A stretch of DNA of 64,000 nt from Thermoanaerobaculia bacterium (GTDB lineage: Bacteria; Acidobacteriota; Thermoanaerobaculia; Multivoradales; DATKCC01), in assembly GCA_033762835.1 (NCBI GenBank), contig JANRLG010000029.1:12795-76794 (forward strand), in the 5' to 3' direction. How positions within the stretch are numbered: position 1 is the first letter of the stretch; the number at the start of each line of letters is the position of its first letter. Under the pieces are notes generated by a model. It saw nothing but the letters and a program-made list of their open reading frames with translations, did no database searches and had not been told where the DNA came from. Shown here one piece after another: positions 22,406 to 39,550 of the stretch. Both the position numbers and the translations under genes were made by a program.

Positions 22406-22660
22406 CTACGACGTGCGCCGAATCGCCTTCTGGATCTCGTCGTGGATGCGGAAGAACTCGGGCAAATGCAGCCCCAACTCGCGTGCGTAGCGGGCGACGA
22501 TCCGAATGCTCGGTGCCTCCCGGCCGGTTTCGTGCCGGCTGTTGGCCGACGCCGAGACCTTTGCCTTCTCGGCAAGTTGTTCTTGAGTCAAGCCGACGGC
22601 TTGCCGAAGGGCCAACAGGGCGGTTCCGACCGACTTGGCTTCGTCGTCGAACTGGTACAT
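22406..22660 (-). CDS. XRE-family helix-turn-helix transcriptional regulator
   Basis: LRQAVGLTQEQLAEKAKVSASANSRHETG HTH motif. Start at the internal ATG (MYQFDD). Confidence 0.7.
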   Translation of the reverse strand: MYQFDDEAKSVGTALLALRQAVGLTQEQLAEKAKVSASANSRHETGREAPSIRIVARYARELGLHLPEFFRIHDEIQKAIRRTS

Positions 22661-22868
22661 ACGCCAAATGCTACCGCGCTTTTCTTCTCTCTTGCTCTCC
22701 ACGTTCTCGACACCCGCCCGCCGGAGCCGACTCCCGGCGGTCGGGGCCTCCTCGCACCGGGCCGGGTCGGTGTCGCTTCTCGCGGCATCGCTTCCCCGGG
22801 GGCTCTCCGGCCCGGCTCGGTGCCCTTTTCTCTTCACTTCAGGGTCTCAACCGACAAGGAGCGATTTC

Positions 22869-23291
22869 ATGACCGAACCGATGGTTTCCGCGGGGACTTT
22901 GCCCTCTGCCGAGGTCCGACGTTTCGTTCGCACAACGGACCCGGCGGACCTGGTGGCGTTGCGGGCGGCGCGAGTGCGGGGGACGGTGGCGCCGGTGGCG
23001 CTACGGATTGAGTCCGTGGCGGAGCGGCTTGCCGACTTTCCGGGCTGGGAGCTGTACCCGGCCGGTCCGGGACTGGCTCGGCTATACCACTTTCCCACCG
23101 GGGGCGACGCGGCGCGGTTCGCGGTGTACGTGGCCGGGCTCCTGGCGGACCTCGAAGCGGAACCGGCCGTCGAGCTTCAGGGCGAGATGGTTTCCGTTCG
23201 GCTGTGGTCCCTGCCGGGTCGGGGTCAAGTGGCCGAACGGGACTTCGACCTCGTGGCGCTGGTCGAAGGCCGCGGGGAGCTGCCGCGGTGA
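22869..23291 (+). CDS. hypothetical protein, possibly a degenerate pterin-4a-carbinolamine dehydratase (DCoH)-like fold
   Basis: AGGAG SD 8 nt upstream. The C-terminal region has a DCoH-like pattern but lacks the catalytic HHP histidines. Confidence 0.4.
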   Translation: MTEPMVSAGTLPSAEVRRFVRTTDPADLVALRAARVRGTVAPVALRIESVAERLADFPGWELYPAGPGLARLYHFPTGGDAARFAVYVAGLLADLEAEPAVELQGEMVSVRLWSLPGRGQVAERDFDLVALVEGRGELPR

Positions 23292-24556
23292 AGCCACCGT
23301 TCCCGCCCCGCTGGCAGGTGCTGCGGCAGCTCGAAGATCGCCTTGGCGACGAGACGGCGCACGCGGCCGGCCGGAGTCTACGGGCGCTCGATCGCGAGAT
23401 TATGGGCCGACGGCTGCACGACCGTGTCGAGCTGGCCGAGGTCGATGTCCTCCTCGAGCGGGCGGCCGAGACCGAGCAGCGGTTCCTCGAGCTGCTGGCG
23501 TTGCCGGCTGGTGAGCGGGAAGGGTGGATCGAAGCGCGGTCTTGGACGTCCGACGCGTTGGCTTTGGGCGAGCGGCTGCTGAGCGAAGCGGACCGGCTGC
23601 CGCTGGTAGCTCGGCTGCCACTCGCGCGGCTGGCGGTGCAGGTGACAATGCGGACTCCGCTCGCGCCTGGCGATGCCCTCTTCAAAGCCCGGGTCGACGA
23701 CGTGCTCGGCCGGGCGCCCTTGCTCGAGGTGCGGGCGCTCCGCCGCCGCGGTCAACTCGAGAAGGCCCATGAGCGGTTCGCCGAGCTGGAGGCTATGTTC
23801 ACGGCGGACCCTGGGGTGCTCTATTTCTGGCTGACGCTCGCGGGCGAGCGGGACTTGACGCTCGGCCTCCTATTGCGCGACGAGGGCAGATGGACCCAAG
23901 CGACGACGGCGCTACACCGGGCCGCGAAGCTCTTTGCCATTGCCGGCACGGAAGAGGACGACTTCGAAGTGCTGCACGCCCAGGTGCGCACGGAGCTGCT
24001 CCAAGGTGACGCGGCCCGCGCCGTCGAGCGGCTCACCCCTGTGCCGAGCTTCCACGAAGCCTTCCGGCGCCGGGCCACCGCCTTCTTGCGCGTGCGTGCG
24101 GCGCGGCGCACGACCTCGGTTCCGCTCGCGCGGCAGTCGCTGCTCGGCCTGCTCGTCGAGCTGGGCACCGGCTGCTCGGACCAAGACCTCGATGCCTTTC
24201 GCATCGCCGAAGCGGCGGTCCAACTCGCCGAGGGGCAGGCCCCCGCCGCCCTCGAGACCGTTGCCGGTCCGGCCGAACGGGTGCGCGCCGAGGGCTTCCT
24301 GCTCGATTCCCTCCGGGCGGCCCTCGTCACCTGCCGGGCCGAGCTGGCCCATCGTCGGCGCGGCGCCGCACAGAAAGCCCTCGCCGCGGGCGTGCTCGAG
24401 CGCTTCTTCGACCTGCCGGACGTCCCTGCTATCCGGAGCGTCCTCGCTGCGGTCAACGAACACGCCGCCAGCCCCCTCGACTTCGCCTTCCTCCAGCGGC
24501 TCGACCTCTGGCTGATCCTCGCTGAGGACAGCCCGGGGGTTGGGCTGCCGGACTAA
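23288..24556 (+). CDS. alpha-helical repeat hypothetical protein
   Basis: GTG start overlaps the upstream stop (GTGA). 422 aa, Leu/Ala/Arg-rich helical repeats. Confidence 0.5.
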   Translation: MKPPFPPRWQVLRQLEDRLGDETAHAAGRSLRALDREIMGRRLHDRVELAEVDVLLERAAETEQRFLELLALPAGEREGWIEARSWTSDALALGERLLSEADRLPLVARLPLARLAVQVTMRTPLAPGDALFKARVDDVLGRAPLLEVRALRRRGQLEKAHERFAELEAMFTADPGVLYFWLTLAGERDLTLGLLLRDEGRWTQATTALHRAAKLFAIAGTEEDDFEVLHAQVRTELLQGDAARAVERLTPVPSFHEAFRRRATAFLRVRAARRTTSVPLARQSLLGLLVELGTGCSDQDLDAFRIAEAAVQLAEGQAPAALETVAGPAERVRAEGFLLDSLRAALVTCRAELAHRRRGAAQKALAAGVLERFFDLPDVPAIRSVLAAVNEHAASPLDFAFLQRLDLWLILAEDSPGVGLPD

Positions 24557-24622
24557 CCCTTTTTTGCGACTACCGGGTTCCTACGAACGATGAGCAGCCG
24601 CCTCTACTTGGAGATTGGAATC

Positions 24623-25120
24623 ATGCACAGACTTCTCCCGGCCCTCTTCCTTGCCTGCTTCGCCCTCGTCCTCGCCCCGGGCGCCTTCGCCCAGGTGACG
24701 GACGGCACCAACATCGGCAACCTCGACCAAGACCGGGCTCGGACCAAAGAGATCCGCGATGCGCGTCAGGTCATTGACGACTACCCGGCGGAGAACTGGC
24801 GGACGGCGGCCTATCTTCTGATCGAGCTGACCCCAAACGAGGACGGCTCGGCAACGTTGACGATTGCGGAGAAGGACCGCTTGAAGCTTCTCGGGATCAA
24901 GAAGGCCGAACCCCAGACGGCGACGAGCTGGCTGGTGGCTGACCCCGATCGGATCAAGCTCCAGGTGAACTACTACCAAACCAAGCAGGAAGTCGCCTGC
25001 TCGGTGCCGAAGAAGCTGCGGGGGCAGGCGGTGACGCTTGGGATCTTCAAGGTCTACGAGTCGCAGGTGGAGTGTTTCGTGCGGCTGGCGGAAGGGCCGG
25101 CCGCGAGCCCCTCGCCGTGA
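24623..25120 (+). CDS. small secreted hypothetical protein
   Basis: Signal peptide MHRLLPALFLACFALVLAPGAFAQ. Located immediately upstream of the RHS gene. Confidence 0.5.
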   Translation: MHRLLPALFLACFALVLAPGAFAQVTDGTNIGNLDQDRARTKEIRDARQVIDDYPAENWRTAAYLLIELTPNEDGSATLTIAEKDRLKLLGIKKAEPQTATSWLVADPDRIKLQVNYYQTKQEVACSVPKKLRGQAVTLGIFKVYESQVECFVRLAEGPAASPSP

Positions 25121-25169: not shown

Positions 25170-28100
25170 ATGTTCGATCGTCTTTCCCGCCACGGCTTTG
25201 GTGCCCTTGTCGGTCTCATTAGCTTCTCCTCGCCGATCGCCCAGGCGCAATCTTCTGCCTGGCCTGTTGATGGATCGAGCCAGGCTTTGCTTCAGCTGCA
25301 GGGTGGTCCCGAGCTGCTGGAGGATTTCGTGTGCAGTAGTAGCTCGGACGGTTTCCAGTACGGCTTCATGGAGCGTGCAGGCAGCAGCTTGGCTGAGTTG
25401 ACATCTCCGTGCTCCTCGGTCGGTCGCTGTGAATTGCCCAAGTCGGAAGGCAGCTTCATAGCCCTGAAACAGGAAAGTTGTAGCCCTGCCACGTCCGCCT
25501 GCGAAGTGCGTCTGTGGGCACCGCTCGAGTTCCCCGGGAACGCCCAGAACTTCACTGGCGGCCGCCCAACGGGGAAACTTTTGTTCTACTCGAGTCCGAC
25601 GGCTTCGAGCTGTGCACCCTGGCCGGGTCCCAGTTGTGGGCAAATCGCCGAGTGCGGATTCTCCGGCGCAAATCAAGTCCAGGCGGACTTCATTTACGCG
25701 TGGATCGAGCGGGGGGGCGTCACCTGTGCCAATGCCGAGACGTTGACCGACGACTTTTCGCTGGCGGCTTGGCAGTGCGTGACTTCGACGGCGAGTTGTC
25801 GCCGCCTGACGCCGGTGAACAGCCTCATCTTCGGTGGCCCGGAGCTGGCGAAGGGCATCGGTTGCCGGCGGGAGATTCCGCCGGATAGCTGCGGGGAAGC
25901 AGAAAACTGCGACCGCTGTCGCGTCGGAGTCGGGCTTGGTGACGGCAAACCCGGATTCGCCGTCGCGGGCGGAGGCCCTGGAGCGACGCTTTACTACCGC
26001 GCCGGAGGAACGGGTTCCCGGTTTACGCCGGGAGAGTCGTCCTGGCGGCAAGAGCTGGGGCGTTCGTGGTCTCACAGCTACGCCGAGCGAATCGTGGTCG
26101 ATCCCGATGACTCCCATGTTTGGCTCTTGACGAAGTCGGGGAGCTTCCGCGAGTGGAGTGGACTTTCCGGGGGGCTCTACACCTCAGTTTTTCCCAGCGA
26201 CGAAAAGCGGACGTTGACCCGCACGGTTGGTGGCTGGGAGCTGCAAGAGCTGGACGGCACGGTCCATGGCTTTGGGTCGGACGGACGCTGGCAGAGCACC
26301 ACGGATCGCTACGGCAACGCCAAAACCGCCACCTACGCGGCGGGTAGGCTGAGCACGGTGAGCTTCCCGGACGGCCGGAGCGAGACGTTCACTTATCACC
26401 CCGACAGCAAGCTGGCCTCGATTGCGGAAGTGGGAGTCGGCGGCAGCCCGACCCGCACCTGGAATTACGTGTGGTCCGGGGACGATCTGATCCGGATCAA
26501 CCGGCCGGATGGCACGGCCTGGCGGTTCCGGTACGCCGCGAACGGGTACCCGGGGTTCATGACCCATCACTACCTCGTCCCCATGACTGGTGCCGAGCGC
26601 GTCATCCAGCGCTGGCGTTACGACCGCGAAGGCAATGTCGTCGAAACGTGGTCCGGGGACGAAACGCCGACCCCGACTTCGCCGAACCGTTGGCAGTTCG
26701 CTTATGACAACCCGGCCGATCCTGCCGTGGTCACGGTGACCGATCCCTTGGGCGTTGCGGCGACGGTCAACCTCGAACGCGAGACTGTCCCAGGGCAGAT
26801 TCGGCCCAAAGCGCGGGTCACTTCTTACTCGGGCGATTGCCCCTCCTGTTCGCTCGGGCCGAACTCCCAACTCGAGTACACAGACCCGGCGAACCCGCTG
26901 CGACCCACCCGCGTCATCGATGGCAAGGGCCACATCACCGATCTCGTGTACGACGACCTCGGCATGGTCACGGAGCGGACGGAGGCCGTGGGAACCGCAG
27001 TCGAGCGCACGACGACATGGACCTACGCCTCGACTTACCCCGCGCTCGTCGCATCGATGACCCAGCCTTCGACCTCGGGAGGGCTCGCAGAGCGGGAGAC
27101 GACTACGGGTTTCGACGCCTCCGGCAATGCTACGACGCGCACCGAAACCGGCATCGAAGGCGGCTCGGCTTTCAGTCACTCGACGATCACGACCTTCAAC
27201 GCTGCCGGCCAGCCGCTGACGATCGACCCTCCGGGGCACGGTACAGCGGACCAGATCAGCTTCACCTACGACCCAGCACGGGGCAATCTGGTGCCGTTGA
27301 CTCGTACCGACCCGATCGGGACGACGACGTACCTCTACGACGCCTTCAACCGCCGGGTGCGGGTGGTGGACGTCAACGGCGTCGCAACCGACACTCAGTA
27401 CGACGACCTCGACCGGGTGGTGAAGACCCTCCAGAGGGCGACGACACCGGCCGATCCGGCAGCTCTTGCCGGTCCGGGTGACCTCGTCACGGAGCATACC
27501 TACGCCCCCCTCGGCGACCTCTACTGCACCAAGTTTCCTAGCGGCAACGCACTCGCCCGGGTCTACGACGCCGCGGGGCGACTGACCGAGGTGCGGCGCG
27601 GAGTGGGCTTGGCGACGATCGGGTCCGTGGCCGCCTGTCTCAATCCGTCTCCGGCGCGCCAGCGTGTGCGTTTCGAATACAACGGCGCTGGCCAGAAGGT
27701 CCTCGAGAGCCAGGACCAGGAGACGACCCCGATCGACAATTGGGTGCGGCGAGCCGCAACAGCCTATGAGTACTCGACCCGTTGCCACCTGGACAAGATG
27801 ATCCAGGCCCCGGGATTGCCCGAAGAATCGGTGACCGAATACGACTACGACTGCAACGGCAACCTCGAGCGTACGTGGGACCCGAACCACCCCTCAGGCG
27901 GGCAAGTGAACCCCGCGACGGCGGTATACACCTACGACGCGCTCGATCGCCTGACCACCCTGACCCAGCCCTGGGGCGGCGCGGGCGGCGGAAATGTGGT
28001 GACGAGTTACGGCTATGACGTGCAAGACCACCTGACAGCCGTCACCGACGGCGAGGGCAGCGTCACGAGCTACGTGTACTCGGACCGCGACTTGATGACC

Positions 28101-30212
28101 TCAGAGCTGTCCCCGGTCTCCGGCACCACGACCCACACCTACGACGAACACGGCCAACTCGTGACCACGACGGACGCTCGCGGGGTCGTGATCGGCCGCA
28201 CCGTGGATGCCACGGACCGCGTAACGCTGGTCGACTACCCCGGCACCGATCTCGACACCACCTACACCTACGGCACCAACCCCGCCGCCTTCGATGTCGG
28301 CCGCCTGGTTTCGATCACCCGCCCGAACGGCACCAGCGTGCCCTACGCCTACGACCGCTTCGGCCGCGTGTTGACCGATGGCGAGATGAGCTTCACCTAC
28401 GACGGCAATGGGAATCGATCGACGATCGGCTATCCTGGTGGCACCGTGGCGTCGTATACCTACGATTACGCCGACCGCCCCACGAGCCTGTCCGTGACGC
28501 CCGCGGGCGGTAGTGCGCAGACGGTGGCCTCCGCCGCCTCGTACCTGCCCTCGGGGCCGTTAACCGCCCTGACGCTCGGCAACACCGTCGTCGAGACGCG
28601 CAGCTTCGATGGCCGCTACCTGCCAACCGCCATCCAAGCTTCGGGCAACCGGCTGACCTGGAACTACACGACCGACGACGTCGGCAACCCGACGGCGATC
28701 ACGCAGACGCAGCCGGCGGCCGAGAGCCGGACCTACGGCTACCAGGACTTCCAGTACTTCCTGACCTCGGGAGTCGGCCCCTGGCCGGGGCCGCTGTCCT
28801 GGACCTACGACCGCATCGGAAACCGGCTGACCGAAACCCGCGGCGCCTTCACGGACAGCTACCAGTACGTCCCGAACGCTGCCACTCCGACCCCAGGCAA
28901 CACGGCGATCCTGGACCAAATCGGCCTCGGTATCGGCGGTACCCGAGACTACGGTTTCGGCCCCGCTGGCCACCTCGACGAGATCGTCTCGGGAGCTGTG
29001 ACGACCGGTTACCAGCACAGCCCCGATGGCCAGCTCACCGACATCGGCACCCTCGGCGCCCGCTCCACGATGACCTACGACGGTCGCGGATTCCTTCGGC
29101 AAGCCGAACAGCCGGCGTTCTCGATCTTCGAGGACAGCTTCGAAACGGTGGATACCTCGTGCTGGAGCGAGACGGTCCCGGATTCCACCGAGTCAAGCCC
29201 CGCGGGCGCCTGCTTCGCTCCTGGAAGTCCAATAACCACCACCGCCACCTACGGCTCCGAGGGCTTGCTCTACTCGCTCTTGCGTTCCAACAGCGAACGC
29301 CACCACGTGCTCTACTTCGCCGGCCGACCGGTCGCACAACTGCGCGTCCCCACGGCCGGAACCGCCACCTTCATCTACCTCACCACCGACCATCTCGGCA
29401 CGCCGATTCTGGCGATGAACCAAGCCGGCTCCACCCTCTGGCGTGGGGGCTTCGAACCCTTCGGCGCGGACTGGAACGGAAGTGCCACGGCAGCCGGGGT
29501 CTTTCTGCGCTTCCCGGGGCAATGGGACGATGGCGCTTGGGCGGGGGTGGGGGCGGCAGAGCTCAGTTACAACCTGCACCGGTGGTACGAGCGGGGCACG
29601 GGGCGGTATGAGCGGGTAGACCCGCTTCATTCTGCCGGAAAGCTCGACTTCGTGTTTGTCAAGAACAGGCCATTGTCACTTATCGACCCCTTAGGGCTAA
29701 AAGAATGCAGTCGGTGCGACCAGTGTCCTTGCGGTGTTTGGCTCTACACCAATCCAGAACTCGAGTTGTTTGCATTCACTGGAGGAGCATCGGGAGGTGC
29801 CCTAGCGTTTAGCTGCGCGTGTAACAGTACTGTTTGCACTGGTCCAGTTAGCTCCGTTACAGGGCTCGGCGGGGCAAGTGTCGGCGGAGGCGTGGTGGCA
29901 AGCGCGGTCTTTAGTGTTGGCATTGCCTGGGATGCATGTAATTCGAGCGACCTCGAAGGGCTTGGAGTGGCCGTCGGTCTGAGCGGCCTAGGTGGGCTCG
30001 GATTTGGATTCGAGGGTGGCTCTTCTCCCTCCTCAGGCGCGCGATTCGCGGACATTGGAGCAGGTGTCGGAGCGGGAGCGGTAACCCGGCTGAGGTTTCC
30101 GCATGTAGGCCCACTCATCTGTAGACGGCAGCCCGTTCCGCCACAAGGCCCACTCCAGCCTGCCTTTTGTGAGACCAATGCCAGTGACCCAGCTTGCTAC
30201 TTCTCGAACTGA
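25170..30212 (+). CDS. Sec-secreted RHS/YD-repeat polymorphic toxin with a Gly/Ser/Thr/Cys-rich glycine-zipper C-terminal toxin domain
   Basis: 1680 aa. Signal peptide, Cys-rich N-terminal domain, many YD repeats (YDxxGRL), RHS core ending in DPLGL near 29.67 kb. C-terminal tail of about 165 aa with GxxxG arrays. Confidence 0.9.
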   Translation: MFDRLSRHGFGALVGLISFSSPIAQAQSSAWPVDGSSQALLQLQGGPELLEDFVCSSSSDGFQYGFMERAGSSLAELTSPCSSVGRCELPKSEGSFIALKQESCSPATSACEVRLWAPLEFPGNAQNFTGGRPTGKLLFYSSPTASSCAPWPGPSCGQIAECGFSGANQVQADFIYAWIERGGVTCANAETLTDDFSLAAWQCVTSTASCRRLTPVNSLIFGGPELAKGIGCRREIPPDSCGEAENCDRCRVGVGLGDGKPGFAVAGGGPGATLYYRAGGTGSRFTPGESSWRQELGRSWSHSYAERIVVDPDDSHVWLLTKSGSFREWSGLSGGLYTSVFPSDEKRTLTRTVGGWELQELDGTVHGFGSDGRWQSTTDRYGNAKTATYAAGRLSTVSFPDGRSETFTYHPDSKLASIAEVGVGGSPTRTWNYVWSGDDLIRINRPDGTAWRFRYAANGYPGFMTHHYLVPMTGAERVIQRWRYDREGNVVETWSGDETPTPTSPNRWQFAYDNPADPAVVTVTDPLGVAATVNLERETVPGQIRPKARVTSYSGDCPSCSLGPNSQLEYTDPANPLRPTRVIDGKGHITDLVYDDLGMVTERTEAVGTAVERTTTWTYASTYPALVASMTQPSTSGGLAERETTTGFDASGNATTRTETGIEGGSAFSHSTITTFNAAGQPLTIDPPGHGTADQISFTYDPARGNLVPLTRTDPIGTTTYLYDAFNRRVRVVDVNGVATDTQYDDLDRVVKTLQRATTPADPAALAGPGDLVTEHTYAPLGDLYCTKFPSGNALARVYDAAGRLTEVRRGVGLATIGSVAACLNPSPARQRVRFEYNGAGQKVLESQDQETTPIDNWVRRAATAYEYSTRCHLDKMIQAPGLPEESVTEYDYDCNGNLERTWDPNHPSGGQVNPATAVYTYDALDRLTTLTQPWGGAGGGNVVTSYGYDVQDHLTAVTDGEGSVTSYVYSDRDLMTSELSPVSGTTTHTYDEHGQLVTTTDARGVVIGRTVDATDRVTLVDYPGTDLDTTYTYGTNPAAFDVGRLVSITRPNGTSVPYAYDRFGRVLTDGEMSFTYDGNGNRSTIGYPGGTVASYTYDYADRPTSLSVTPAGGSAQTVASAASYLPSGPLTALTLGNTVVETRSFDGRYLPTAIQASGNRLTWNYTTDDVGNPTAITQTQPAAESRTYGYQDFQYFLTSGVGPWPGPLSWTYDRIGNRLTETRGAFTDSYQYVPNAATPTPGNTAILDQIGLGIGGTRDYGFGPAGHLDEIVSGAVTTGYQHSPDGQLTDIGTLGARSTMTYDGRGFLRQAEQPAFSIFEDSFETVDTSCWSETVPDSTESSPAGACFAPGSPITTTATYGSEGLLYSLLRSNSERHHVLYFAGRPVAQLRVPTAGTATFIYLTTDHLGTPILAMNQAGSTLWRGGFEPFGADWNGSATAAGVFLRFPGQWDDGAWAGVGAAELSYNLHRWYERGTGRYERVDPLHSAGKLDFVFVKNRPLSLIDPLGLKECSRCDQCPCGVWLYTNPELELFAFTGGASGGALAFSCACNSTVCTGPVSSVTGLGGASVGGGVVASAVFSVGIAWDACNSSDLEGLGVAVGLSGLGGLGFGFEGGSSPSSGARFADIGAGVGAGAVTRLRFPHVGPLICRRQPVPPQGPLQPAFCETNASDPACYFSN

Positions 30213-30219
30213 GAAAAAA

Positions 30220-30492
30220 ATGACACCCATCATCAGGAAGTCTTTCCAGTTCGGACTTCTCGCCTTCTTCGCGATCAGCGTCGCCCTCGGCTTCGCCCGG
30301 GAGGGACCAATATCTCTTGTAGTTGGGATATTGGTTGGCACGGGAGTCTTCCTAGTTAGCATGATGCGGCCGAGAATTGACCGAGCAGAAGGAAGTCTTA
30401 GTGAGCAACCGGTGCCTTCGTCGGTCTTGGCTGGAGGAGTTGTGCTGCTAGTGGTGATTGGAGCCGCATTGGCTCTGGTCATCAGTTGTTGA
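30220..30492 (+). CDS. small 3-TM membrane protein (candidate immunity protein for the RHS C-terminal toxin domain)
   Basis: Starts 8 nt after the RHS stop. About 90 aa with three hydrophobic helices. Confidence 0.5.
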   Translation: MTPIIRKSFQFGLLAFFAISVALGFAREGPISLVVGILVGTGVFLVSMMRPRIDRAEGSLSEQPVPSSVLAGGVVLLVVIGAALALVISC

Positions 30493-31031
30493 CCTCGCCG
30501 TCGCCTCGGCCGACTTCGGGAGCGGAGTTTCGGCAGGCCAGACGAGCGGGAGAACCCGTTTGCCTATGCGAAGTCTCGGACTACGGTCTTCGTCGACTGG
30601 CAGGGACTCGAATGCAGCAAGGCCCGGGCGAGACTTGGGTGGGATATGGAGCCAAGGCAGACGCTCTCGTGGGAGCGGGGCTATCAATCGGAGGGAATCT
30701 CGCTCTCTACCGCTTCTCTTGCCTGTCGGCAAACCTGAAATGCGATGTGTTCGTCGCATGCGGGAAGTTCCTCGGATTAGGAGCATCACTCTCGTTGACC
30801 GGCGTGGGAGTTGCGGCCTTCAACGCAGAGTGCGCAAGTGACTTAGAAGGGCTTTCGCTAGGTGGTGACGCTGACATTGGGATTGGAGGCGCAATTTCTG
30901 CAGGAGCATCGATCTCGACATCGACGGACCCATCGCTGGTGCTCTCGGTTGAGGGTGGCGTGGGCATAGGTGCGAGTACAGGCGTTACTGTGTGCGGCGG
31001 CACCGTAATAACTTGTCGAAAGGGAGGCTAG
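30486..31031 (+). CDS. orphan RHS C-terminal toxin cassette, homologous to the C-terminal toxin domain of the upstream RHS (start uncertain, possibly ATG near 30612)
   Basis: FSCLSANLKCDVFVACGKFLGLG...NAECASDLEGLSLGGD aligns to the RHS tail FSCACNSTVCTGPVSSVTGLGG...WDACNSSDLEGLGVAVG. It retains an ECxxC junction remnant and has no YD repeats. Confidence 0.55.
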   Translation: MLTSPSPRPTSGAEFRQARRAGEPVCLCEVSDYGLRRLAGTRMQQGPGETWVGYGAKADALVGAGLSIGGNLALYRFSCLSANLKCDVFVACGKFLGLGASLSLTGVGVAAFNAECASDLEGLSLGGDADIGIGGAISAGASISTSTDPSLVLSVEGGVGIGASTGVTVCGGTVITCRKGG

Positions 31032-31038
31032 CGTGATC
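31021..31038 (+). repeat. 18-bp cassette-junction direct repeat AGGGAGGCTAGCGTGATC, copy 1 (stop TAG, SD, and GTG start in one unit)
   Basis: Identical 18-mer recurs at 31774-31791. Both copies end an ORF in GG* and open a GTG reading frame (MIVSLVV... versus truncated VIISLETLR*). Confidence 0.7.
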
Positions 31039-31344
31039 GTCTCGCTGGTTGTCTTCGTCTTCGTATTCTTGGTCTGGGCGCTCGTCTTAAGTAGTAGCGG
31101 GTCGATTTCGAGGGTCGACAAGCATGGTTTTTTGTTCCGGCCAATTCTAGACAGTGAGACTTACTATGCCCTGTCTACGTTCCGTCTGCCGGTGAGCGAG
31201 GAACGAAATGGTTGGAGACGGATTCTCCTGCCCTTCTCTGATAAACGCTTCCTGAGGCTGAGGAGCAGAATATGCGTATTCCTGAGAGATTCCGACATCG
31301 ACCGAGACTTCCTAAGCTTGGTATCGAAGCGTGGTCCACATTAG
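31033..31344 (+). CDS. small membrane protein (candidate immunity protein for the orphan toxin)
   Basis: GTG start 1 nt after the upstream TAG, inside the conserved junction repeat. N-terminal TM. Confidence 0.45.
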   Translation: MIVSLVVFVFVFLVWALVLSSSGSISRVDKHGFLFRPILDSETYYALSTFRLPVSEERNGWRRILLPFSDKRFLRLRSRICVFLRDSDIDRDFLSLVSKRGPH

Positions 31345-31424
31345 AGGAGCTAGCTCTGAAGCCTCACAAGTGAAGGCAGAAGCAGCTCCATTTTTCGACC
31401 GTTGAGGCTGCTGAAGGGTGAGTC

Positions 31425-31784
31425 GTGGAAATAAACCTAGTAAAAACCGATCCGTTCTACCGCCACACTTTGATCTGCATTGGAAGCCTGGCGGCGGTGG
31501 CGTGGCCGTTCGCGATCTTCACGCCAAGGCAGATGACTGCTGCCGGAGAGGCCCTCTTCTTCGCTGGCATCGTTGCTGTCCTTGGCCACCACGTCTTCCT
31601 GTTTAGGCTAGCAGGGCAGTGCAAGGGCCTAAGCCCAACCGAAGCCCAGTCTCTCCGTAAGTCGATCCTCTTCTTCGGCCCGGCTGGAGTCGTCGATTTC
31701 CTTTGGCGGGTCTTCCGAACGCCGGACCGAGATTCGGCAGGGGAAAGCCCAGAGAGCCGGCACCCTCGGCGAGAGGGAGGCTAG
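31425..31784 (+). CDS. small 3-TM membrane protein (orphan immunity-like)
   Basis: 119 aa with three hydrophobic helices. Ends in ...REGG* inside the second copy of the junction repeat. Confidence 0.45.
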   Translation: MEINLVKTDPFYRHTLICIGSLAAVAWPFAIFTPRQMTAAGEALFFAGIVAVLGHHVFLFRLAGQCKGLSPTEAQSLRKSILFFGPAGVVDFLWRVFRTPDRDSAGESPESRHPRREGG

Positions 31785-31791
31785 CGTGATC
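31774..31791 (+). repeat. 18-bp cassette-junction direct repeat, copy 2
   Basis: See copy 1. The downstream GTG ORF is truncated after 9 codons. Confidence 0.7.
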
Positions 31792-31904
31792 ATCTCACTT
31801 GAGACGCTGAGGTAGAGAACGACAATCGAAAAGCATTGAGCCGGTAAAACTAGTCGCTGGCTCAGGGACGGGATCCGGACTAGTCGCGAGATTGGAGGTC
31901 AGTT

Positions 31905-32093
31905 GTGAAAGCACCCGTAGGATTCACCATCCACCGAGAAACCGTTCGGATTCTCAACGAAGCTGAAGCGGACCGAACCCGGGGCGACAAAGCCCCACCG
32001 CAAGCTTTCCACATCAGCGAGTGGTGCACTGGAGCTCCGCTGACGGGAACCTGCACGGACTATTGCGTCGACAAACACAGCATCTGGCGGTGA
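31905..32093 (+). CDS. candidate class I lanthipeptide precursor (LanA-like): leader plus C-terminal core CTGAPLTGTCTDYCVDKHSIWR
   Basis: 62-aa ORF. GGAGG SD 6 nt before the GTG. It is 33 nt upstream of lanC. The last 22 aa contain 3 Cys, 5 Thr and 1 Ser. Confidence 0.35.
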   Translation: MKAPVGFTIHRETVRILNEAEADRTRGDKAPPQAFHISEWCTGAPLTGTCTDYCVDKHSIWR

Positions 32094-32125
32094 AGTTAAG
32101 GCTTGTCAGCTGACAGGAGGCTCGG

Positions 32126-33445
32126 ATGACGATAAATAGGACCTCTACCGTCTGCTGGCAAGCCTTGGTCTGTGACGCGGATCGCCGGTCGGCAGCCTTG
32201 ACCGCCCTCGACGCGATCATCCAAGATCTTCAGGCAATGGAAGACCCATGGGGGTCGTTCCTTGGTCACGTCGATCTTGCCGATCAGGCTCGGGCGCGAA
32301 CGACCCTGCAGCACGGCGCGGCAGGGCTGCTACTTTTCGATCGTTATGTCGGGGCGAGTCGAGCCGACGCGCTGGAGCTCGAGCGAGCGCACCGTGACGC
32401 CTTGTTCCAGGCTTTGGCTCACGAACCACTGCCACCGTGGTTGTTCGATGGAGTGGCAGGACTCGGATGGGTATTGGCGCATCGTCTCCGAGCGGGTCAC
32501 GAAGAGAACTTAGATCTGGCCGAGTTGGACGATCTGCTGCTCACTTACCTTTCTAAGGCTGGAGAGAGCATTCCGTTCGAGCTGATCGCGGGACGGGTTG
32601 GCCTCGGTCTCTACTTCCTCGAACGTCTCCCTGTGGCCAAGGCACGGGAAGGCGCCGAGGCAATCGTCGCGTCTCTCGAGCGGTCGGTCGAGTCTCGTCC
32701 GGATGGGCTCACGTGGCGCACCGTCGCTGATTGGATGGAACCAAAGGCGGCCCGAGTTCTTTCCCAGGGATTGTGGAACCTCGGCGTATCCCACGGTGTC
32801 CCGGGCGTCATCGGCTTCCTGGCGCGTTGCGCAGAGGAGAAGATCTCTAGTCCGGAGTGCCGTCGGCTGCTTGCAGGAGCAATTCCCTGGCTTCTCGGGC
32901 AGCGCAACCCTCCCGACGCGGCAAGGGCGTTCCCCTTTTTCTCCAGCGACGGCGGACGCTCGGAGGAAACCCGCCTTGGTTGGTGTTACGGCGAAGTCGG
33001 CATCGCCGCTGTTCTGATTCGGGCTGGGACGGCGATAGGAGTCGACGAGTGGGTAAGCGAAGGTCTTGACCTGGCCTTGAGGGCGGCTGCCGCGAGCTTC
33101 GAGCATGCGTTCGTCGATGAACCATCGCTGTGCCATGGCGCCGCAGGTTTGCTTCATTCCTTCAATCGAATGGGGCAGGCTTTGAATGAGCCGCGCCTTC
33201 TCGACGCGGGTAGACGGTGGTTTGATCACACGCTCGACTTTTTCCGACCCGGGAAGGGGCTGGGAGGGTTTGATTACCTGCACGCTTATTCTAGGACCGA
33301 GCGGTTCAGCGTGCCGGGTCTCCTGATCGGATCGGCTGGCGTGGGGCTCGCTTTGCACGCGGCGATTCAGGGAGAAGTGGAACCGAACTGGGACCGTGTC
33401 TTCCTTCTCGACCTACCATTGAGCCGCAGGGGGCAGCAACCATGA
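32126..33445 (+). CDS. lanC: lanthipeptide cyclase LanC
   Basis: SHGVPG, WCYGEVG and CHGAAG zinc-ligand motifs of LanC-like proteins. AGGAGG SD upstream. Confidence 0.8.
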   Translation: MTINRTSTVCWQALVCDADRRSAALTALDAIIQDLQAMEDPWGSFLGHVDLADQARARTTLQHGAAGLLLFDRYVGASRADALELERAHRDALFQALAHEPLPPWLFDGVAGLGWVLAHRLRAGHEENLDLAELDDLLLTYLSKAGESIPFELIAGRVGLGLYFLERLPVAKAREGAEAIVASLERSVESRPDGLTWRTVADWMEPKAARVLSQGLWNLGVSHGVPGVIGFLARCAEEKISSPECRRLLAGAIPWLLGQRNPPDAARAFPFFSSDGGRSEETRLGWCYGEVGIAAVLIRAGTAIGVDEWVSEGLDLALRAAAASFEHAFVDEPSLCHGAAGLLHSFNRMGQALNEPRLLDAGRRWFDHTLDFFRPGKGLGGFDYLHAYSRTERFSVPGLLIGSAGVGLALHAAIQGEVEPNWDRVFLLDLPLSRRGQQP

Positions 33446-36400
33446 AGGTTGGCTTCGGAATTGAGCCCGTTGGTTTCGCTTGGCTGCGAGCGGCACAGTC
33501 ACCTATCAGCGACTTGAGCACGAGCCCCTCGTCGGCCAGGAGCGAGCTGGCAAACGAATTCTTGGAAGCGGTCTGGCTGGCAACTCCGGAATTCGTCGAG
33601 TCTTTGCCGAGCGAGCTGACGGAGAAGCAACTCCGAACCCTGCGGCGATACTGGCTCAGGATGGCGGGACGACCGACACCCTTCGGCCTCTTCGCAACAG
33701 GCTCCCTGGTGGTCGTGGCTGCTGAGGGACACCCTCAGCCTCAAGTCCGATTCGAGTTGGAGCCGACCATGTCTCGCCGATCGGTGCTCGATTGGGGCGT
33801 CATGCATCGATTGGCAGCTCTCTGGAGGAAAAGCCTGGGAACAAAGGCGCGGTTCCAAACGACCGGGGCACTCTGGAAGTCTGCGAAGCGGCTTCACTAT
33901 CTGCGCGCCGAGAAGACCACGGATGCAGCCACTGCGTTTGTCGCAACAACCTCCCAGAGCAGCCGTCCCCTCGTCGAAGCACTGCGCTTAGCTCGTGAGC
34001 CCGGAGGAGTGTCACTCGAGGCGCTCGGTGAGCTCCTCAAGAAACGGTTCCCAGGCGTAGAGGACGCGCAGATCGCTGGCTTCTTAGACGAGCTTGTCGC
34101 CGAGGGCCTCCTTCTCCCGGTTCTGGAGCCGTGTGTCATCGGCGAAGACGTGCTCGCAGAGCTGTACGCGGAGGCCGTAGAGTCGGGCGCTCAGTTCCGC
34201 GATCTCCTGCGCTTTGGAAGACTTTGCGAGCGCCTCGGCCGTCTCGACCAGCCTGGGGACACTTTCGGCGCAGCACGGTGCCTTCGTCGGGCTCTTATCC
34301 GATCAAAGTTGGTCGATGAAGGCAGCCCGGTCTTCAACGTCTCCGCATACCGCGGTGTTCGTGAGGGAGCCCTGAGCCAGGAAGTCGCCGCGGAAATCGG
34401 TCGCGGCCTCGAGCTCTTGGCGAGCTTGGCTCCGAACTCGAACCCGCCTGCACTCGAGGCTTTCCGGGAGGCTGCTGAGCGGCGTTACGGATTAACCTCC
34501 ATTCCGCTCCTCGAGCTGCTCGACGAGCGTCTCGGGTTGGGCCGCGAGTGGCGCCGATTCTTGAAGAACGAAAGCACCGCGGTTACCGTCTCCACGGATA
34601 GCTTGAGCCTCCCCTTCGAGGCGGTTTCTCGGAGCAGGGAGGAGTGGATACTACGAGATGAGGACGTCGCGCCGTTCCTCGAACGCGGAGCACAGCGTGC
34701 CACCTCACTGCGTTCGCTTGCGGCGGTCGTCACCCTTGGCGAAGCCGATAACTCCGAGTCCATCGTCGTTCTTCACGGTGGCTATGGCCCCTCGGCGGCG
34801 ACGTTGCTCGGCCGCTTCTGTGTAGGGCACACCGAGTTGCAAGAACGCGTCCGCGATCTCGCGGAGCGGGAGCAGCTCTCGTGCGATCCGTCGCTCTGGC
34901 TTGCCGAAATCTCGCATCTGCCAGCAATTCGGGCCGGAAACGTCCTTCATCGACCCACTCTGAGGAAGTTTCAAGTGCCCGTTCTGGCGCCGTCGGCACC
35001 AAGGGGAGCGGTTTGTCTTGCCCTCGAAGATCTCTGGGTTCGTTCGGACGGTACGAAGCTACGGCTCTATTCTCGACAAACTCGCCGTGAAGTCGAGCCT
35101 TCGTCTCTCAACGCGCACAATTTCCGCTTTCAAGGCAACCTCTCAATCTACCAGTTCCTATCTCTGCTTCCATTGCAGGGCACTCCTCAGCCCCTGCGCT
35201 GGAGCTGGGGCCGTGCGTTCGAGCGGGCGGTCTTTCTGCCTCGAGTGCGATGGGGCCGACTCATACTCAGTCGAGCTCGCTGGCACCTCGATCGTTCGCG
35301 AGTTCGTGCCGAGGCCCTTGAGGCCTGGATCGATCAAAATGCGGTCCCGCGGTTTATTGGCCTCATCACTGGCGAGGACGAAATCGCGCTTGACCTTCGT
35401 TCGAACGCCGGCATGGAAATGCTGCACGAAGAGTCTCGCAGGAGGGAACGGGTCGCTCTGGCAGAGATCTTGCCCTTGCCAAACGAACTTGCGGTCCGGG
35501 ATGAGCGAGGGCGCTATTGTCACGAACTCATCGTGCCCTTTCTGAGCTCAGGTTCACCACCCAAGGCTTCGAGTCAGAAGCTTCCGCCGATCGCGCGCCG
35601 CCCGTCCCGGAGACGACACTCCGACCGTTGGCTCTACTTGCGGCTCTACGCGCCTGACCAAGAGCTCGACGAGATTCTCCTCCAGTGCATTTACCCGACG
35701 ATCGCCAAATTAAAACGGGACAGCCAGCTGGAGAAATGGTACTTCTTGCGTTACTCCGACCCGGACCATCACGTTCGCCTCCGAATACTGCCTGCCGCCA
35801 AGATTTCTCCGGAGGATCTGCTGGGGATCGTGGGTCACGAGATCGGTCCTTTTCTGAAGTGCAGAGCCCTCCACCGGCTCGAGTGGGCTGCCCATGAAGT
35901 CGAAGACCATCGCTACGGTCCACCTTCGACGCTCGCGATCGTCGAAGAGGTCTTCACCAGCGACAGCGAGTGGGTGCTCGAGTTGATCCAGTGTTTGAGA
36001 CGGGACCGGCTCGAGAAGAACCGAGCAGATTGGATGGTCTACAACCTCGACCGCTGGTTCGAAATCCTTAGCTGGCCGATCGGACTTAGAAGCGAGCTGT
36101 TGTCTTCACTCCGCGCGGCGTCGGCGGAAGCGCACCCGGCGGCCTTTCCAGAACGTTCTACGCGCGCTGCGCTCTTTCGGACTCGGAGGGAAGGGCTCGA
36201 GACGCTCTTGAGCGACGCCTCCGGCAGTGTACCGGCCGTTGTCCTGCGCGCCAACCAACAGCGGGCTTGGCGGCTCCGCCCGCTGCTCTCAAGTCTTCGT
36301 CAAACGAGGACTTTCCGGGGCCGGGAGGCCTTCGTCAAGTTGGTGGGCAGCCTGCTCCATCTCAGCACGAACCGCCTTCAAGCCTGGCCAGACCGAGGCG

Positions 36401-36501
36401 GCGAAGCGGTCGCCCTAGACTTCTTGGAGCGCATCTACCTTTCGCGAGCCGCTCGCGCGCGCCTGGTCCCTGGTTGGAGCCCGAGAGAACAGCGTCGGTA
36501 G
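33442..36501 (+). CDS. lanB: class I lanthipeptide dehydratase LanB (glutamylation plus elimination domains)
   Basis: 1019 aa. N-terminus RRYWLRMAGRPTPFGLFA matches the lantibiotic-dehydratase N-domain. KWYFLRYSDPDHHVRLRI matches the SpaB_C (thiopeptide-type) elimination domain. ATGA overlap with lanC. Confidence 0.8.
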   Translation: MKVGFGIEPVGFAWLRAAQSPISDLSTSPSSARSELANEFLEAVWLATPEFVESLPSELTEKQLRTLRRYWLRMAGRPTPFGLFATGSLVVVAAEGHPQPQVRFELEPTMSRRSVLDWGVMHRLAALWRKSLGTKARFQTTGALWKSAKRLHYLRAEKTTDAATAFVATTSQSSRPLVEALRLAREPGGVSLEALGELLKKRFPGVEDAQIAGFLDELVAEGLLLPVLEPCVIGEDVLAELYAEAVESGAQFRDLLRFGRLCERLGRLDQPGDTFGAARCLRRALIRSKLVDEGSPVFNVSAYRGVREGALSQEVAAEIGRGLELLASLAPNSNPPALEAFREAAERRYGLTSIPLLELLDERLGLGREWRRFLKNESTAVTVSTDSLSLPFEAVSRSREEWILRDEDVAPFLERGAQRATSLRSLAAVVTLGEADNSESIVVLHGGYGPSAATLLGRFCVGHTELQERVRDLAEREQLSCDPSLWLAEISHLPAIRAGNVLHRPTLRKFQVPVLAPSAPRGAVCLALEDLWVRSDGTKLRLYSRQTRREVEPSSLNAHNFRFQGNLSIYQFLSLLPLQGTPQPLRWSWGRAFERAVFLPRVRWGRLILSRARWHLDRSRVRAEALEAWIDQNAVPRFIGLITGEDEIALDLRSNAGMEMLHEESRRRERVALAEILPLPNELAVRDERGRYCHELIVPFLSSGSPPKASSQKLPPIARRPSRRRHSDRWLYLRLYAPDQELDEILLQCIYPTIAKLKRDSQLEKWYFLRYSDPDHHVRLRILPAAKISPEDLLGIVGHEIGPFLKCRALHRLEWAAHEVEDHRYGPPSTLAIVEEVFTSDSEWVLELIQCLRRDRLEKNRADWMVYNLDRWFEILSWPIGLRSELLSSLRAASAEAHPAAFPERSTRAALFRTRREGLETLLSDASGSVPAVVLRANQQRAWRLRPLLSSLRQTRTFRGREAFVKLVGSLLHLSTNRLQAWPDRGGEAVALDFLERIYLSRAARARLVPGWSPREQRR

Positions 36502-36548
36502 CTAGTTGATTGAAATGCTAGATTAGGGCCGGTGCCGAGTGTTGGCCC

Positions 36549-37625
36549 TTGAGGTCGAGAATGAAGACTGCTTACCCCCGGATGGTCGTGACAAGCCTCG
36601 TCGGCTTCTCATTGATATCGGGCCTCGGATGTTCCAAAGCCAATCCGGCGGTAGCGCATGAGCTTACCGCTCGGGTCGAAAGCGTCGCTATCCAGGATTC
36701 CGTGCTGTCTCCTGGACGGGTCGTCGCGGATGTCGGTGGACAAGTTCGCGTCGGCCCACGGATCTCCGGTCGCTTGAAGAGGCTCCTCGTCAAGGAAGGC
36801 GACTTCGTTCGAGTCGGCCAGCTCGTTGCTGAGCTGGACGACGACGAACTGAGGAGCCGTCTCGCCGAGGCATCCGCGGCCAGGACAGAAGCCGAGATCT
36901 CCGTTGAGGGTGGCCGAGCGCGATCCGAGCGACGCCGTCGCCTCGCCGCGGAAGGGCTGCTTTCTCAGGACGAAGCCGAGGCCGCTCGTATCGAGTGGGA
37001 GCGTTCGAAAGCGGCTCTTCTTCGCCTTGAAGGGGCAGAGAATCGAGCGAGGGTCGAGCTCGGTTACTCCAAGCTCACGGCTCCCATCACCGGAGTCGTC
37101 ACCCGCGTCGCCACACAAGAGGGAGAGACCGTAGCATCGAGCTTCGAGACGCCAACGTTTCTTACGATCTTGGATCCGAACCTTTTGGTTGTTGAAGCGC
37201 TGGTCGACGAAGCCGACATCCGACGCATAGCCGTTGGCCAGAAAGCGCAAGTGACGTTCGATGCTCTTCTTGGCGAGACTTGGAGTGGACGCGTTCGAAC
37301 CGTGAGCCGCGAGCCGACTGAAGCAACGGGTCCAGTGCGCTTTGCAGTGGTTCTCGATCTCGAGGGCGGATCTCGCTCCGAGTTGCGACCACGATTGACG
37401 GCTACCGTCGAGTTTCAACAGGGACATGGTCGATCCCAGCTAGTTGTCCCCGCAATGGCTCTGCGACAGGATGGCTCGGGCTTCTACGTCCTCGTGCGCA
37501 GAGCCGAGGGTTCGCTGGAGCGCCGCGCTGTGCTTCCAGGTCCTGAGCAGGGAGGTCGGGTCTCGGTCTCCGGAGAGATCCAGGAGAATGAGATCGTCAT
37601 CCTTGTGCCGCCTAGAAAGGAATGA
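36549..37625 (+). CDS. HlyD/MacA-family periplasmic adaptor lipoprotein
   Basis: Lipobox LISGLGC; biotinyl-lipoyl-like and beta-barrel regions. Confidence 0.8.
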   Translation: MRSRMKTAYPRMVVTSLVGFSLISGLGCSKANPAVAHELTARVESVAIQDSVLSPGRVVADVGGQVRVGPRISGRLKRLLVKEGDFVRVGQLVAELDDDELRSRLAEASAARTEAEISVEGGRARSERRRRLAAEGLLSQDEAEAARIEWERSKAALLRLEGAENRARVELGYSKLTAPITGVVTRVATQEGETVASSFETPTFLTILDPNLLVVEALVDEADIRRIAVGQKAQVTFDALLGETWSGRVRTVSREPTEATGPVRFAVVLDLEGGSRSELRPRLTATVEFQQGHGRSQLVVPAMALRQDGSGFYVLVRRAEGSLERRAVLPGPEQGGRVSVSGEIQENEIVILVPPRKE

Positions 37626-37629
37626 AGCG

Positions 37630-38301
37630 TTGATCCAGCTCGAAGCGATCTCGCGTTCAGTGCCGACAGGAAGTGGCGCGCTTTCGATCTTGAAAGGAGT
37701 GAGCTTGGAGATCGAGGCCGGGGATTACGTGGCGATCATGGGTCCCTCGGGAAGTGGCAAGAGTACCTTGTTGAACATTCTCGGGCTTCTCGATGTGCCC
37801 ACGAACGGCCGTTACCTGCTCGAGGGACAAGACATCGCCAAGGAAACAGACGCACGTCGCAGCCGTCGCCGAAACCAAACCTTCGGTTTCGTCTTCCAGC
37901 TGTTTCACTTGTTGCCGCGGTTGACGGTTCGAGAGAACGTCCTCTTGCCTCGTCTGTATGGTCGCGAAGAGCTCGATGACATCGAGGAACGGGCGGATGT
38001 CTTGATTCGGCGCCTGGGACTAGAAGCTCGTCGGCGCTCGTTTCCCGGCGTCCTCTCCGGTGGAGAACGCCAACGTGTCGCCATTGCCCGAGCGCTGCTC
38101 AACGAACCCCGAATTCTCCTCGCTGACGAGCCCACTGGGAACCTGGATCAAGCGGCGGGACGAGAAGTGCTCGACATTTTTCGAGAACTCTCGCGAGAAG
38201 GGCAAACCTTGGTCGTCGTGACCCACGATTCGAACGTGGCGGCTGAGGCCCAGCGCGTGCTTTCCATGTCCGATGGGAGGCTCACCGAATGTCAGCCGTG
38301 A
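37630..38301 (+). CDS. MacB/LolD-type ABC transporter ATP-binding protein
   Basis: GPSGSGKST Walker A, LSGGERQR signature, LLADEPTGNLD Walker B. TTG start placed after the AAGGA. Confidence 0.8.
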   Translation: MIQLEAISRSVPTGSGALSILKGVSLEIEAGDYVAIMGPSGSGKSTLLNILGLLDVPTNGRYLLEGQDIAKETDARRSRRRNQTFGFVFQLFHLLPRLTVRENVLLPRLYGREELDDIEERADVLIRRLGLEARRRSFPGVLSGGERQRVAIARALLNEPRILLADEPTGNLDQAAGREVLDIFRELSREGQTLVVVTHDSNVAAEAQRVLSMSDGRLTECQP

Positions 38302-39539: not shown

Positions 39540-39550
39540 GTGGGCCCTAG

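Follow-up and report, generated by a model that had tools for sequence, protein, structure and literature searches.

A putative RHS polymorphic toxin locus of Thermoanaerobaculia: a new C-terminal domain family, membrane partners that differ by subtype, and decayed orphan cassettes

Loci encoding RHS proteins with unannotated tips are common. The question that such a locus raises is what kind of payload the tip represents, and which of the adjacent genes, if any, protect the cell that carries it. We addressed this question for an RHS gene of a Thermoanaerobaculia bacterium, which occupies positions 25170-30212 (+) of a 64,000-nucleotide stretch of contig JANRLG010000029.1 (the window) and encodes a protein of 1680 amino acids (aa). 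At the level of sequence, the comparisons described below identify a polymorphic toxin locus of the RHS type: its C-terminal (CT) domain belongs to a new family, the membrane partners differ by subtype, and the array of orphan cassettes has decayed. The system is ordinary and its RHS architecture textbook; what is new is the payload, for which an unusual fold is predicted.

A new domain family at the exchangeable tip of an RHS protein

The RHS_repeat family PF05593 matches the protein in seven stretches (E 2.7e-33), and the YD-repeat profile TIGR01643 matches it as well (E 1.2e-22). The Rhs_assc_core profile TIGR03696 covers aa 1429-1510 and stops with the last residue of a canonical PxxxxDPxGL junction, PLSLIDPLGL (aa 1501-1510; DPLGL at nt 29685-29699), which is where a first-pass annotation of the window, made from the letters alone, had placed the end of the core. 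The shell of RHS/YD repeats and the RHS-associated core together span 26040-29699 (+), as delimited by PF05593, TIGR03696 and BLASTP against a related locus, L004, and end at the predicted site of autoproteolysis, the polymorphic junction. The RHS core of L004 is 45% identical to that of the window over 530 aa, and the BLASTP alignment ends exactly at DPLGL/DLLGL; the L004 CT that follows the motif (FCHSDFVRHYF…) is unrelated to the tip in the window and has a 134-aa downstream gene of its own. Hence the tails of related RHS proteins are not colinear, and the comparison reveals the exchange of C-terminal domains that the first-pass annotation had proposed. GC content drops sharply past the core, as had also been remarked: it is 0.65-0.685 at 28.0-29.6 kb, in the final ~1.5 kb of the core, but 0.575-0.61 at 29.6-30.2 kb, over the CT, and reaches its lowest value, 0.51, at 31.0-31.4 kb.

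The C-terminal domain (CTD) that follows DPLGL is 170 aa long and contains 17.6% Gly and 11 Cys; it is indeed Gly-rich, as described earlier, and both longer and richer in Cys than the ~165 aa and ~8 Cys then estimated. Neither Pfam nor NCBIfam matches it even at E<=10, in line with the earlier view of an undescribed domain. No relative was found when the CTD alone was used in a word-indexed homologue search, nor when the last 380 aa of the RHS protein were compared with genome contigs, and we found no database record of the exact RHS protein. One relative lies in the window itself. The CTD is colinear with the product of an open reading frame (ORF) a short distance downstream, at 30486-31031, with 27% identity over 146 aa (BLASTP E 0.19), and the Smith-Waterman score of the pair was reached by 1 of 2000 composition-preserving shuffles (z 4.9). 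From the CTD and this downstream paralogue we built a two-sequence profile, with which a full HMMER search of 1.84 billion representative (clustered) proteins at E<=1e-3 yielded 14 relatives. In eight of the 14 an RHS core precedes the domain, which begins right behind DPxGL (as in …IDPLGLKCESGCDDCPGGFW… and …IDPRGLSCSKTCPECPTGRW…), and one of these eight is a full RHS protein of 1794 aa with a signal-peptide-like N-terminus. The other six are stand-alone ORFs; contigs were examined for four of them, and three of the four lie in RHS arrays or retain a relic of an RHS core. The family profile drew at least three proteins from the word-indexed search. A degenerate DNA pattern built on GL-x-C-x3-C-x-[DE]-C-P-x-G-x-W, used to seek additional loci, gave six true loci and three chance matches (L011, L016 and L017).

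The family has the signature C-x3-C-x-[DE]-C-P-x-G-x-W … [FY]-x-C-x-S-x3-C-x-[FL]-x-V-x-C … N-A-x-C-x-x-D-[LI]-E-G … L-C-x5/6-C, which spans ~135 aa with many invariant glycines, and its members end in …LC-x5/6-C-[RN]. In the window the conserved domain corresponds to aa 1511-1653 (29700-30128, +). The family alignment and low pLDDT values set apart the 27-aa tail beyond it (QPVPPQGPLQPAFCETNASDPACYFSN; 30129-30212 with the stop codon, +), which is peculiar to the main CTD copy and is kept, with 1 aa different, in L001, a contig that carries the same locus. Two subtypes can be distinguished: the main CTD of the window and the relative P0002 (41-43% identical) form a divergent subtype, and the downstream orphan belongs to the canonical one. 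For none of the 15 family members did we obtain a Pfam match at E<=1, and the family profile had no match among PDB sequences at E<=10. The named genomes in which the family has been found so far are all Thermoanaerobaculia metagenome-assembled genomes (MAGs; phylum Acidobacteriota). Judged from its relatives and their positions, the CTD represents a rare, genuine family of putative RHS toxins that is not described in any family library.

At its other end, the RHS protein begins with MFDRLSRH, GFGALVGLISF and SSPIAQA|Q, the n/h/c layout of a Sec signal as read from the sequence (aa 1-26; 25170-25247, +; predicted cleavage AQA|Q), and an AAGGGG resembling a Shine-Dalgarno (SD) sequence lies 8 nt upstream of its ATG. 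Library scans gave no PAAR or VgrG match in the protein and, among the 30 window proteins scanned, no component of a type VI secretion system (T6SS); these scans do not place it among T6SS-delivered Rhs proteins. A TonB-dependent receptor is encoded and there are matches to ADOP-type permeases among the window proteins; the former identifies the host as diderm and the latter point to Acidobacteriota. The earlier picture of a Sec-type N-terminus in place of a PAAR/VgrG adaptor in a diderm genome thus holds. Such proteins are not new, since RHS toxins of diderms with Sec signals, those of Acidobacteria included, have been catalogued computationally as a 'T2SS' class (Zhang et al. 2012, PMC3482391). 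The Cys positions define an N-terminal region (25248-26039, +) with 15 Cys at aa 55-250, within the first 250 residues after the signal, as against 8 in the 1200-residue shell, which fits an extracytoplasmic RHS protein. Apart from a faint match to DUF6531 (aa 294-324), this region has no Pfam match; it may possibly serve in surface attachment or receptor binding.

Membrane partners and decayed cassettes

Directly downstream of the toxin domain, the two subtypes are accompanied by different putative immunity partners, a protein with three predicted transmembrane segments (3 TM) in the subtype of the main CTD and a protein with one, o3, in the canonical subtype. The gene for the 90-aa 3-TM protein o1 (30220-30492, +) starts with an ATG 7 nt after the RHS stop codon; hydropathy and the layout of L001 and L018 make it the immunity candidate for the main CTD, and the o1 protein is identical in L001. 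P0002, on contig L018, is the sole independent relative of the window-CTD subtype, and it too is followed by a 3-TM protein, of 96 aa, in which TM1, TM2, an acidic loop and TM3 succeed one another as in o1. The second partner, o3 (31033-31344, +; 103 aa), is predicted from hydropathy and from homologous loci to combine a single TM at the N-terminus with a soluble ~80-aa domain. Homologues with the motif RVDK[HE]GF[LV]FR… lie directly after canonical members in L001, L003-L005, L007, L008, L010, L012, L014 and L015, and besides the window (the ninth) eight locus types have an o3-type gene behind the toxin domain. Two of nine o3-type proteins match bPH_6 (E 1.9e-4), whose membrane proteins resemble them in having an N-terminal TM followed by a domain of ~90 aa, but o3 itself is unmatched; its soluble domain is possibly bacterial PH-like. 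A profile search of the PDB with the o3-type family was uninformative, and we found no immunity role of bPH_6 proteins documented in the literature. The o3-type proteins have acidic N-termini and basic residues after the TM, which by the positive-inside rule predicts an N-out, C-in topology.

The partner gene also persists where the toxin does not. At L009/L013 (Thermoanaerobaculia MAG DASPNA010000073 and a JGI contig; oriented 104-1094), the toxin is truncated after the second predicted strand (…GFAGFGASIGVLELMVES…), and an intact 119-aa o3-type gene stands beside it. Here the putative immunity gene has apparently outlived the toxin, the pattern expected of immunity genes. The first-pass annotation had counted three membrane immunity candidates and had described each toxin as followed by a 3-TM protein. 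The linkage itself recurs in independent loci, for the o3 type in the eight further locus types and for the 3-TM type in L018, and o1 and o3 stand as candidates; only o1, though, has three TM. The third candidate, o4 (31425-31784, +), does not hold up well. This 119-aa ORF has two or three weak hydrophobic segments and is present in L001, but it has no family match in Pfam or NCBIfam, its dN/dS against L001 is ~1.3 and its last seven codons lie inside a repeat described below. An immunity role for o4 is doubtful, and we regard it as either an orphan immunity remnant or a non-functional ORF.

The stand-alone toxin module of the window had been taken for a paralogous domain without a core. Its paralogy is supported by the comparisons above and by the common profile, but the module is not intact, and a relic of a core precedes it. 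The mechanical ORF at 30486-31031 (+) encodes 181 aa, of which the homologous domain, canonical in subtype, occupies the 130 aa from a GTG at 30639. Comparison with L001 identifies 30493-30624 (+) as what is left of the end of an RHS core with its junction (…ENPFAYAKSRTTVFVDWQGLECSKA), now out of frame with the orphan domain. In L001 the toxin frame is continuous back to the o1 stop codon (…ENPLAYAKSRTTVFVDWQGLECSKACPDCPGETWVGYGAKAD…; also given as …VDWQGLECSKACPDCPGETWVGYG… and …NPLAYAKSRTTVFVDWQGLECSKACPDCPGETW…), and its upstream part consists of a relic of an RHS core end (NPL.Y…D..GL) and an intact Cys motif. In the window, 13 nt (TTGTCCCGATTGC; L001 1026-1038) are missing at ~30622, which removes the CPDC codons of the junction motif and shifts the frame; the 181-aa ORF begins with a TTG in a different frame, which is free of stop codons by chance, and its first ~45 codons are not ancestral.

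We compared the locus with L001 and L002, two contigs from a close relative that carry the same locus. The core end shows 100% nucleotide identity to the window, the CTD 99.6% and o1 99.3%, but the value falls to 92.3% over the orphan domain and to 86.5% over o3; correspondingly, dS is 0.16-0.39 in the orphan domain and o3, against 0.01-0.03 in the CTD and o1. Comparison with L001 gave dN/dS values indicative of purifying selection for both the orphan domain (0.33) and o3 (0.22). Because dS is high, identity reduced and dN/dS low, the orphan/o3 pair looks like a segment that was exchanged by recombination and has been under purifying selection.

Traces of a further cassette lie downstream. A 35-nt direct repeat, with copies at 31012-31046 and 31765-31799 (both +) that are 86% identical, takes in the SD sequence GGGAGG and the stop codon of the toxin, as well as the GTG start of the o3-type gene and its first five codons (VI[VI]SL). 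The first copy is the junction between toxin end and immunity start (…GGGAGGCTAGCGTGATCGTCTCGCT); the second leads into a stub of nine codons, VIISLETLR and a stop. We interpret the second copy and its stub as the scar of a third, decayed toxin/immunity cassette. A scan for promoters and terminators performed no better than on shuffled sequence. Orphan modules elsewhere have comparable settings: upstream of P0009 (L008) the open frame reads …FRWYRAGAGRYTQSDPIGL…DPLGLCAESCPDCPGGLW…, the RHS gene in front of P0003 (L003-L007) carries another CT, and P0002 (L018) lies within an RHS array. The array of P0002 also holds, at 3-885 of L018, a second RHS C-terminal domain (…DPLGLRRRLPPSRTRTRACTGAEYTTCVDTCAPRG…), Cys-rich and with a hydrophobic tail, followed by a soluble 124-aa partner.

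The locus resembles known RHS/YD systems, such as enterobacterial Rhs, Bacillus subtilis WapA and TcC of the ABC toxins (PMC3482391), in its YD shell, its PxxxxDPxGL core end and variable CT, its candidate immunity gene directly downstream and its orphan CT/immunity cassettes with core relics. It differs from them in a CT that is unmatched in the Pfam and NCBIfam toxin families and is predicted to be all-β, disulfide-rich and apparently non-enzymatic, and in immunity candidates that are integral membrane proteins rather than soluble inhibitors.

Predicted fold and mode of action

A glycine zipper had been proposed for the CTD, and we used AlphaFold2 (AF2) to predict its fold. With the CTD and the orphan as the only sequences, AF2 gave a pLDDT of 36 and the model was discarded. 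With an alignment of all 15 family sequences the pLDDT was 76.9 and the pTM 0.66; the five models are concordant in structure, and four of them scored within 0.5 pLDDT units of one another, while the fifth reached 71.3. The model consists of four long strands, a short helix of 4 residues at the conserved SDLEG motif and four further strands, and the predicted strands alternate hydrophobic with Gly/Ser/Ala residues. In a Foldseek search VapB and VapG had the top probabilities (0.75-0.84) and VapD 0.41, none of them at E<=1e-3. Vap proteins are characterised by a closed eight-stranded β-barrel in which a short α-helix links β4 to β5; the predicted model has this layout, and the likeness to VapA, VapB, VapD and VapG of Rhodococcus equi (PF05526) extends to the antiparallel arrangement and a Gly-rich surface. 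An hhalign comparison of the two barrel halves (E 0.016, probability 2.9%) is suggestive at most, and we do not claim an internal duplication.

Six to nine Cys are conserved in the family. Alignment columns 82 and 180 have lost theirs together, and columns 34 and 71 have gained them together, in the subtype of the window CTD; these covarying pairs look like re-wired disulfides and fit a domain that folds outside the cytoplasm. The D of the SDLEG motif is the only polar residue in the family alignment that is conserved as a catalytic or binding residue might be. The family is probably non-enzymatic, disulfide-stapled and all-β.

We infer a membrane target, from the model and by analogy, because VapA permeabilises membranes, because the CTD has an uncharged stretch of 55 residues and no catalytic-looking polar residues, and because both partner types are membrane proteins. 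The uncharged run (CTD residues 26-80; 29775-29939) comprises the end of β1, β2-β3 and most of β4, and is unusual for a soluble domain. VapA, the most thoroughly studied protein with the best-matching fold, collapses proton gradients through membrane permeabilisation and permeabilises liposomes too (PMC10100859), which fits the membrane-bound partners of the window family, and VapD has a Gly-rich 'bald' surface to which detergent binds (PMC4118825). In the scheme that we favour, with moderate confidence, the RHS protein would be exported by Sec with the CTD enclosed in its shell. The CTD, a member of the rare family described here, would be cut off at DPLGL|K and fold into a compact, disulfide-stapled, eight-stranded β-barrel, in which the SDLEG helix joins two four-strand halves and the strands have one hydrophobic face and one 'bald' Gly/Ser/Ala face, as in the Rhodococcus equi Vap proteins. 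Like VapA, it would act on the lipid bilayer, permeabilising the cytoplasmic membrane of the target from the periplasmic side and dissipating the proton-motive force, and the inner-membrane proteins o1 (3 TM) and o3 (1 TM and a cytoplasmic domain) would block it in sibling cells.

Several observations weigh against this scheme. The window proteins scanned include no secretion system for passage through the outer membrane. None of the 15 family members matches PF05526, hhalign of the family with six Vap proteins from pVAPA1037 gave a probability of 0.08%, and the C-terminal Gly-rich segment and invariant Trp of the Vap alignment, which ends GIGGGTGxW, are missing; the resemblance to Vap proteins is thus one of predicted structure, with no detectable sequence homology. 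The family differs from them further in its conserved Cys and its C-x5/6-C ending, and in being an RHS payload with putative immunity genes; Vap proteins are virulence factors that an actinomycete secretes freely or displays on its surface. As for the partners, o1 and its L018 counterpart share their architecture, with no significant sequence similarity, and the predicted cytoplasmic location of the soluble domain of o3 is not an obvious site from which to oppose a toxin that arrives from the periplasm.

The first-pass annotation had read the CTD as a membrane-perturbing glycine zipper, a model that can be spelled out as an α-helical, pore-forming toxin that inserts GxxxG helices in the manner of EsxX, TspA, CdzC/D or Tse5-CT. 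The motifs are there (8 GxxxG and 35 [GAS]xxx[GAS] in the CTD), both partner types are membrane proteins, and membrane-depolarising glycine-zipper toxins are an established class (PMC12744356, PMC5380434). In the conserved domain, however, AF2 predicts β-strands and the single 4-residue helix, with Vap barrels as the best structural match; only two marginal 19-residue windows exceed a hydropathy (KD) of 1.6, the β hydrophobic moment (0.78) is greater than the α moment (0.54), and the covarying Cys pairs suggest a disulfide-stapled globular fold. The spacing of the glycines is telling as well. Gly-Gly pairs across the family are enriched at separations of 2, 4 and 6 (z 3.7, 2.7 and 3.0), not specifically at 4, and are weaker at odd ones (z 0.8 at 3, 1.1 at 7 and about 2 at both 1 and 5), so that the GxxxG motifs of the CTD are best seen as a by-product of a period-2 GxGxG pattern of β-strands. 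We consider the helical zipper improbable. If the barrel is accepted, it could instead span the membrane as an eight-stranded pore of the OmpX or OmpA N-terminal type, the hydrophobic face turned to the lipid and the Gly/Ser/Asp face lining a narrow ion-conducting lumen; we think this unlikely, though less so than the zipper.

A barrel could also act by binding, so as to sequester or block one specific part of the envelope (for instance a lipid, a lipid-linked precursor of the cell wall or a protein of the inner membrane), with the partners shielding the target. This is somewhat easier to credit than the transmembrane pore and still not what we expect: no pocket or ligand can be inferred, the Vap barrels are closed and have no recognisable ligand sites (PMC4518536), and the family conserves no polar catalytic or binding residue besides the D of SDLEG. 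Least probable of all, and by our estimate very much so, is that the tail is no toxin and serves as a structural or adhesive appendage beside incidental ORFs. That no known toxin family matches the CTD and that o4 looks non-functional would suit such a view, but the domain sits exactly after the DPxGL motif, in a place where related cores carry unrelated CTs, and recurs as orphan cassettes in RHS arrays; its dedicated downstream partner is kept in nine locus types counting the window, under purifying selection, and stands intact beside the truncated toxin of L009/L013.

Among Rhs effectors, Tse5-CT of Pseudomonas aeruginosa is reportedly a cargo that depolarises membranes. The membrane-disrupting barrel that we favour would share with this kind of payload, and with the CdiA-CT ionophores (PMC11630599) and EsxX (PMC12744356), a predicted action on the membrane and small integral-membrane immunity proteins, which are usual for membrane-targeting toxins, as the ionophores of contact-dependent inhibition and EsxX illustrate. 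It would differ in kind, since CdiA-CT ionophores, EsxX and Tse5-CT are α-helical, hydrophobic or glycine-zipper toxins delivered by type V, type VII or type VI secretion systems, and the window CTD is a predicted disulfide-containing β-barrel on a Sec-type RHS protein. The only pore-forming class in the survey of Zhang et al. (2012; PMC3482391), Tox-WTIP, is likewise α-helical. If the scheme is correct, toxins that bacteria use against one another's membranes, most of which are α-helical, gain a β-barrel class, and the locus documents weaponry for competition in Thermoanaerobaculia-like Acidobacteriota, which have almost no experimental toxin biology. Our literature search found no paper that links Vap proteins with polymorphic toxins.

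The Vap barrel, the best structural match, permeabilises by a mechanism that remains unresolved, and RHS-CT/immunity pairs would, if the scheme is right, offer work on Vap proteins a toxin with its antidote. To our knowledge, that fold is known functionally so far only from Rhodococcus equi virulence proteins. We raise only tentatively, as a broader view that is possible but rather doubtful, that the fold of the Vap proteins arose long ago as a toxin fold for permeabilising membranes and is also used between bacteria, as an RHS payload with inner-membrane immunity proteins. The RHS-CT/immunity pairs would in that case be the first genetically tractable system of toxin and specific antagonist in which to study how a small, soluble barrel with a glycine surface lets protons leak through a bilayer.

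Neighbouring genes

Just upstream of the RHS gene and in the same orientation lie genes for a 450-aa Ala/Leu/Arg-rich protein (23204-24556) and for a 176-aa protein with a signal peptide (24590-25120), both of unknown family; the stop codon of the latter precedes the RHS start by 50 nt. The two could be accessory, export or regulatory factors. A helix-turn-helix regulator is encoded further upstream, at 22406-22837 (-).

Directly downstream of the RHS array is a class I lanthipeptide cluster (31905-40783). It comprises a 62-aa candidate LanA (31905-32093; core HISEWCTGAPLTGTCTDYCVDKHSIWR) directly upstream of lanC, LanC (32126-33445), LanB (33442-36501), a MacA-like adaptor (36549-37625), an ABC ATPase (37444-38301) and two permeases of the FtsX/MacB type (38289-39539 and 39551-40783). 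The candidate LanA precursor has no NCBIfam match. We also considered the orphan module as a precursor peptide for the adjacent LanB and LanC enzymes and rejected this, since the 62-aa candidate adjoins lanC and relatives of the orphan occur in RHS arrays without lan genes.

GC content at third codon positions (GC3) is 0.62-0.77 for the genes at ~20-41 kb, and mostly 0.8-0.9 in the housekeeping flanks (mreB, mreC, PBP2, RNase G and PEPCK). This difference suggests that ~20000-42400 is an acquired island, which would combine two antagonism systems, the RHS array and the lanthipeptide cluster. A fragment of an integrase core (rve) lies at 41676-42413.

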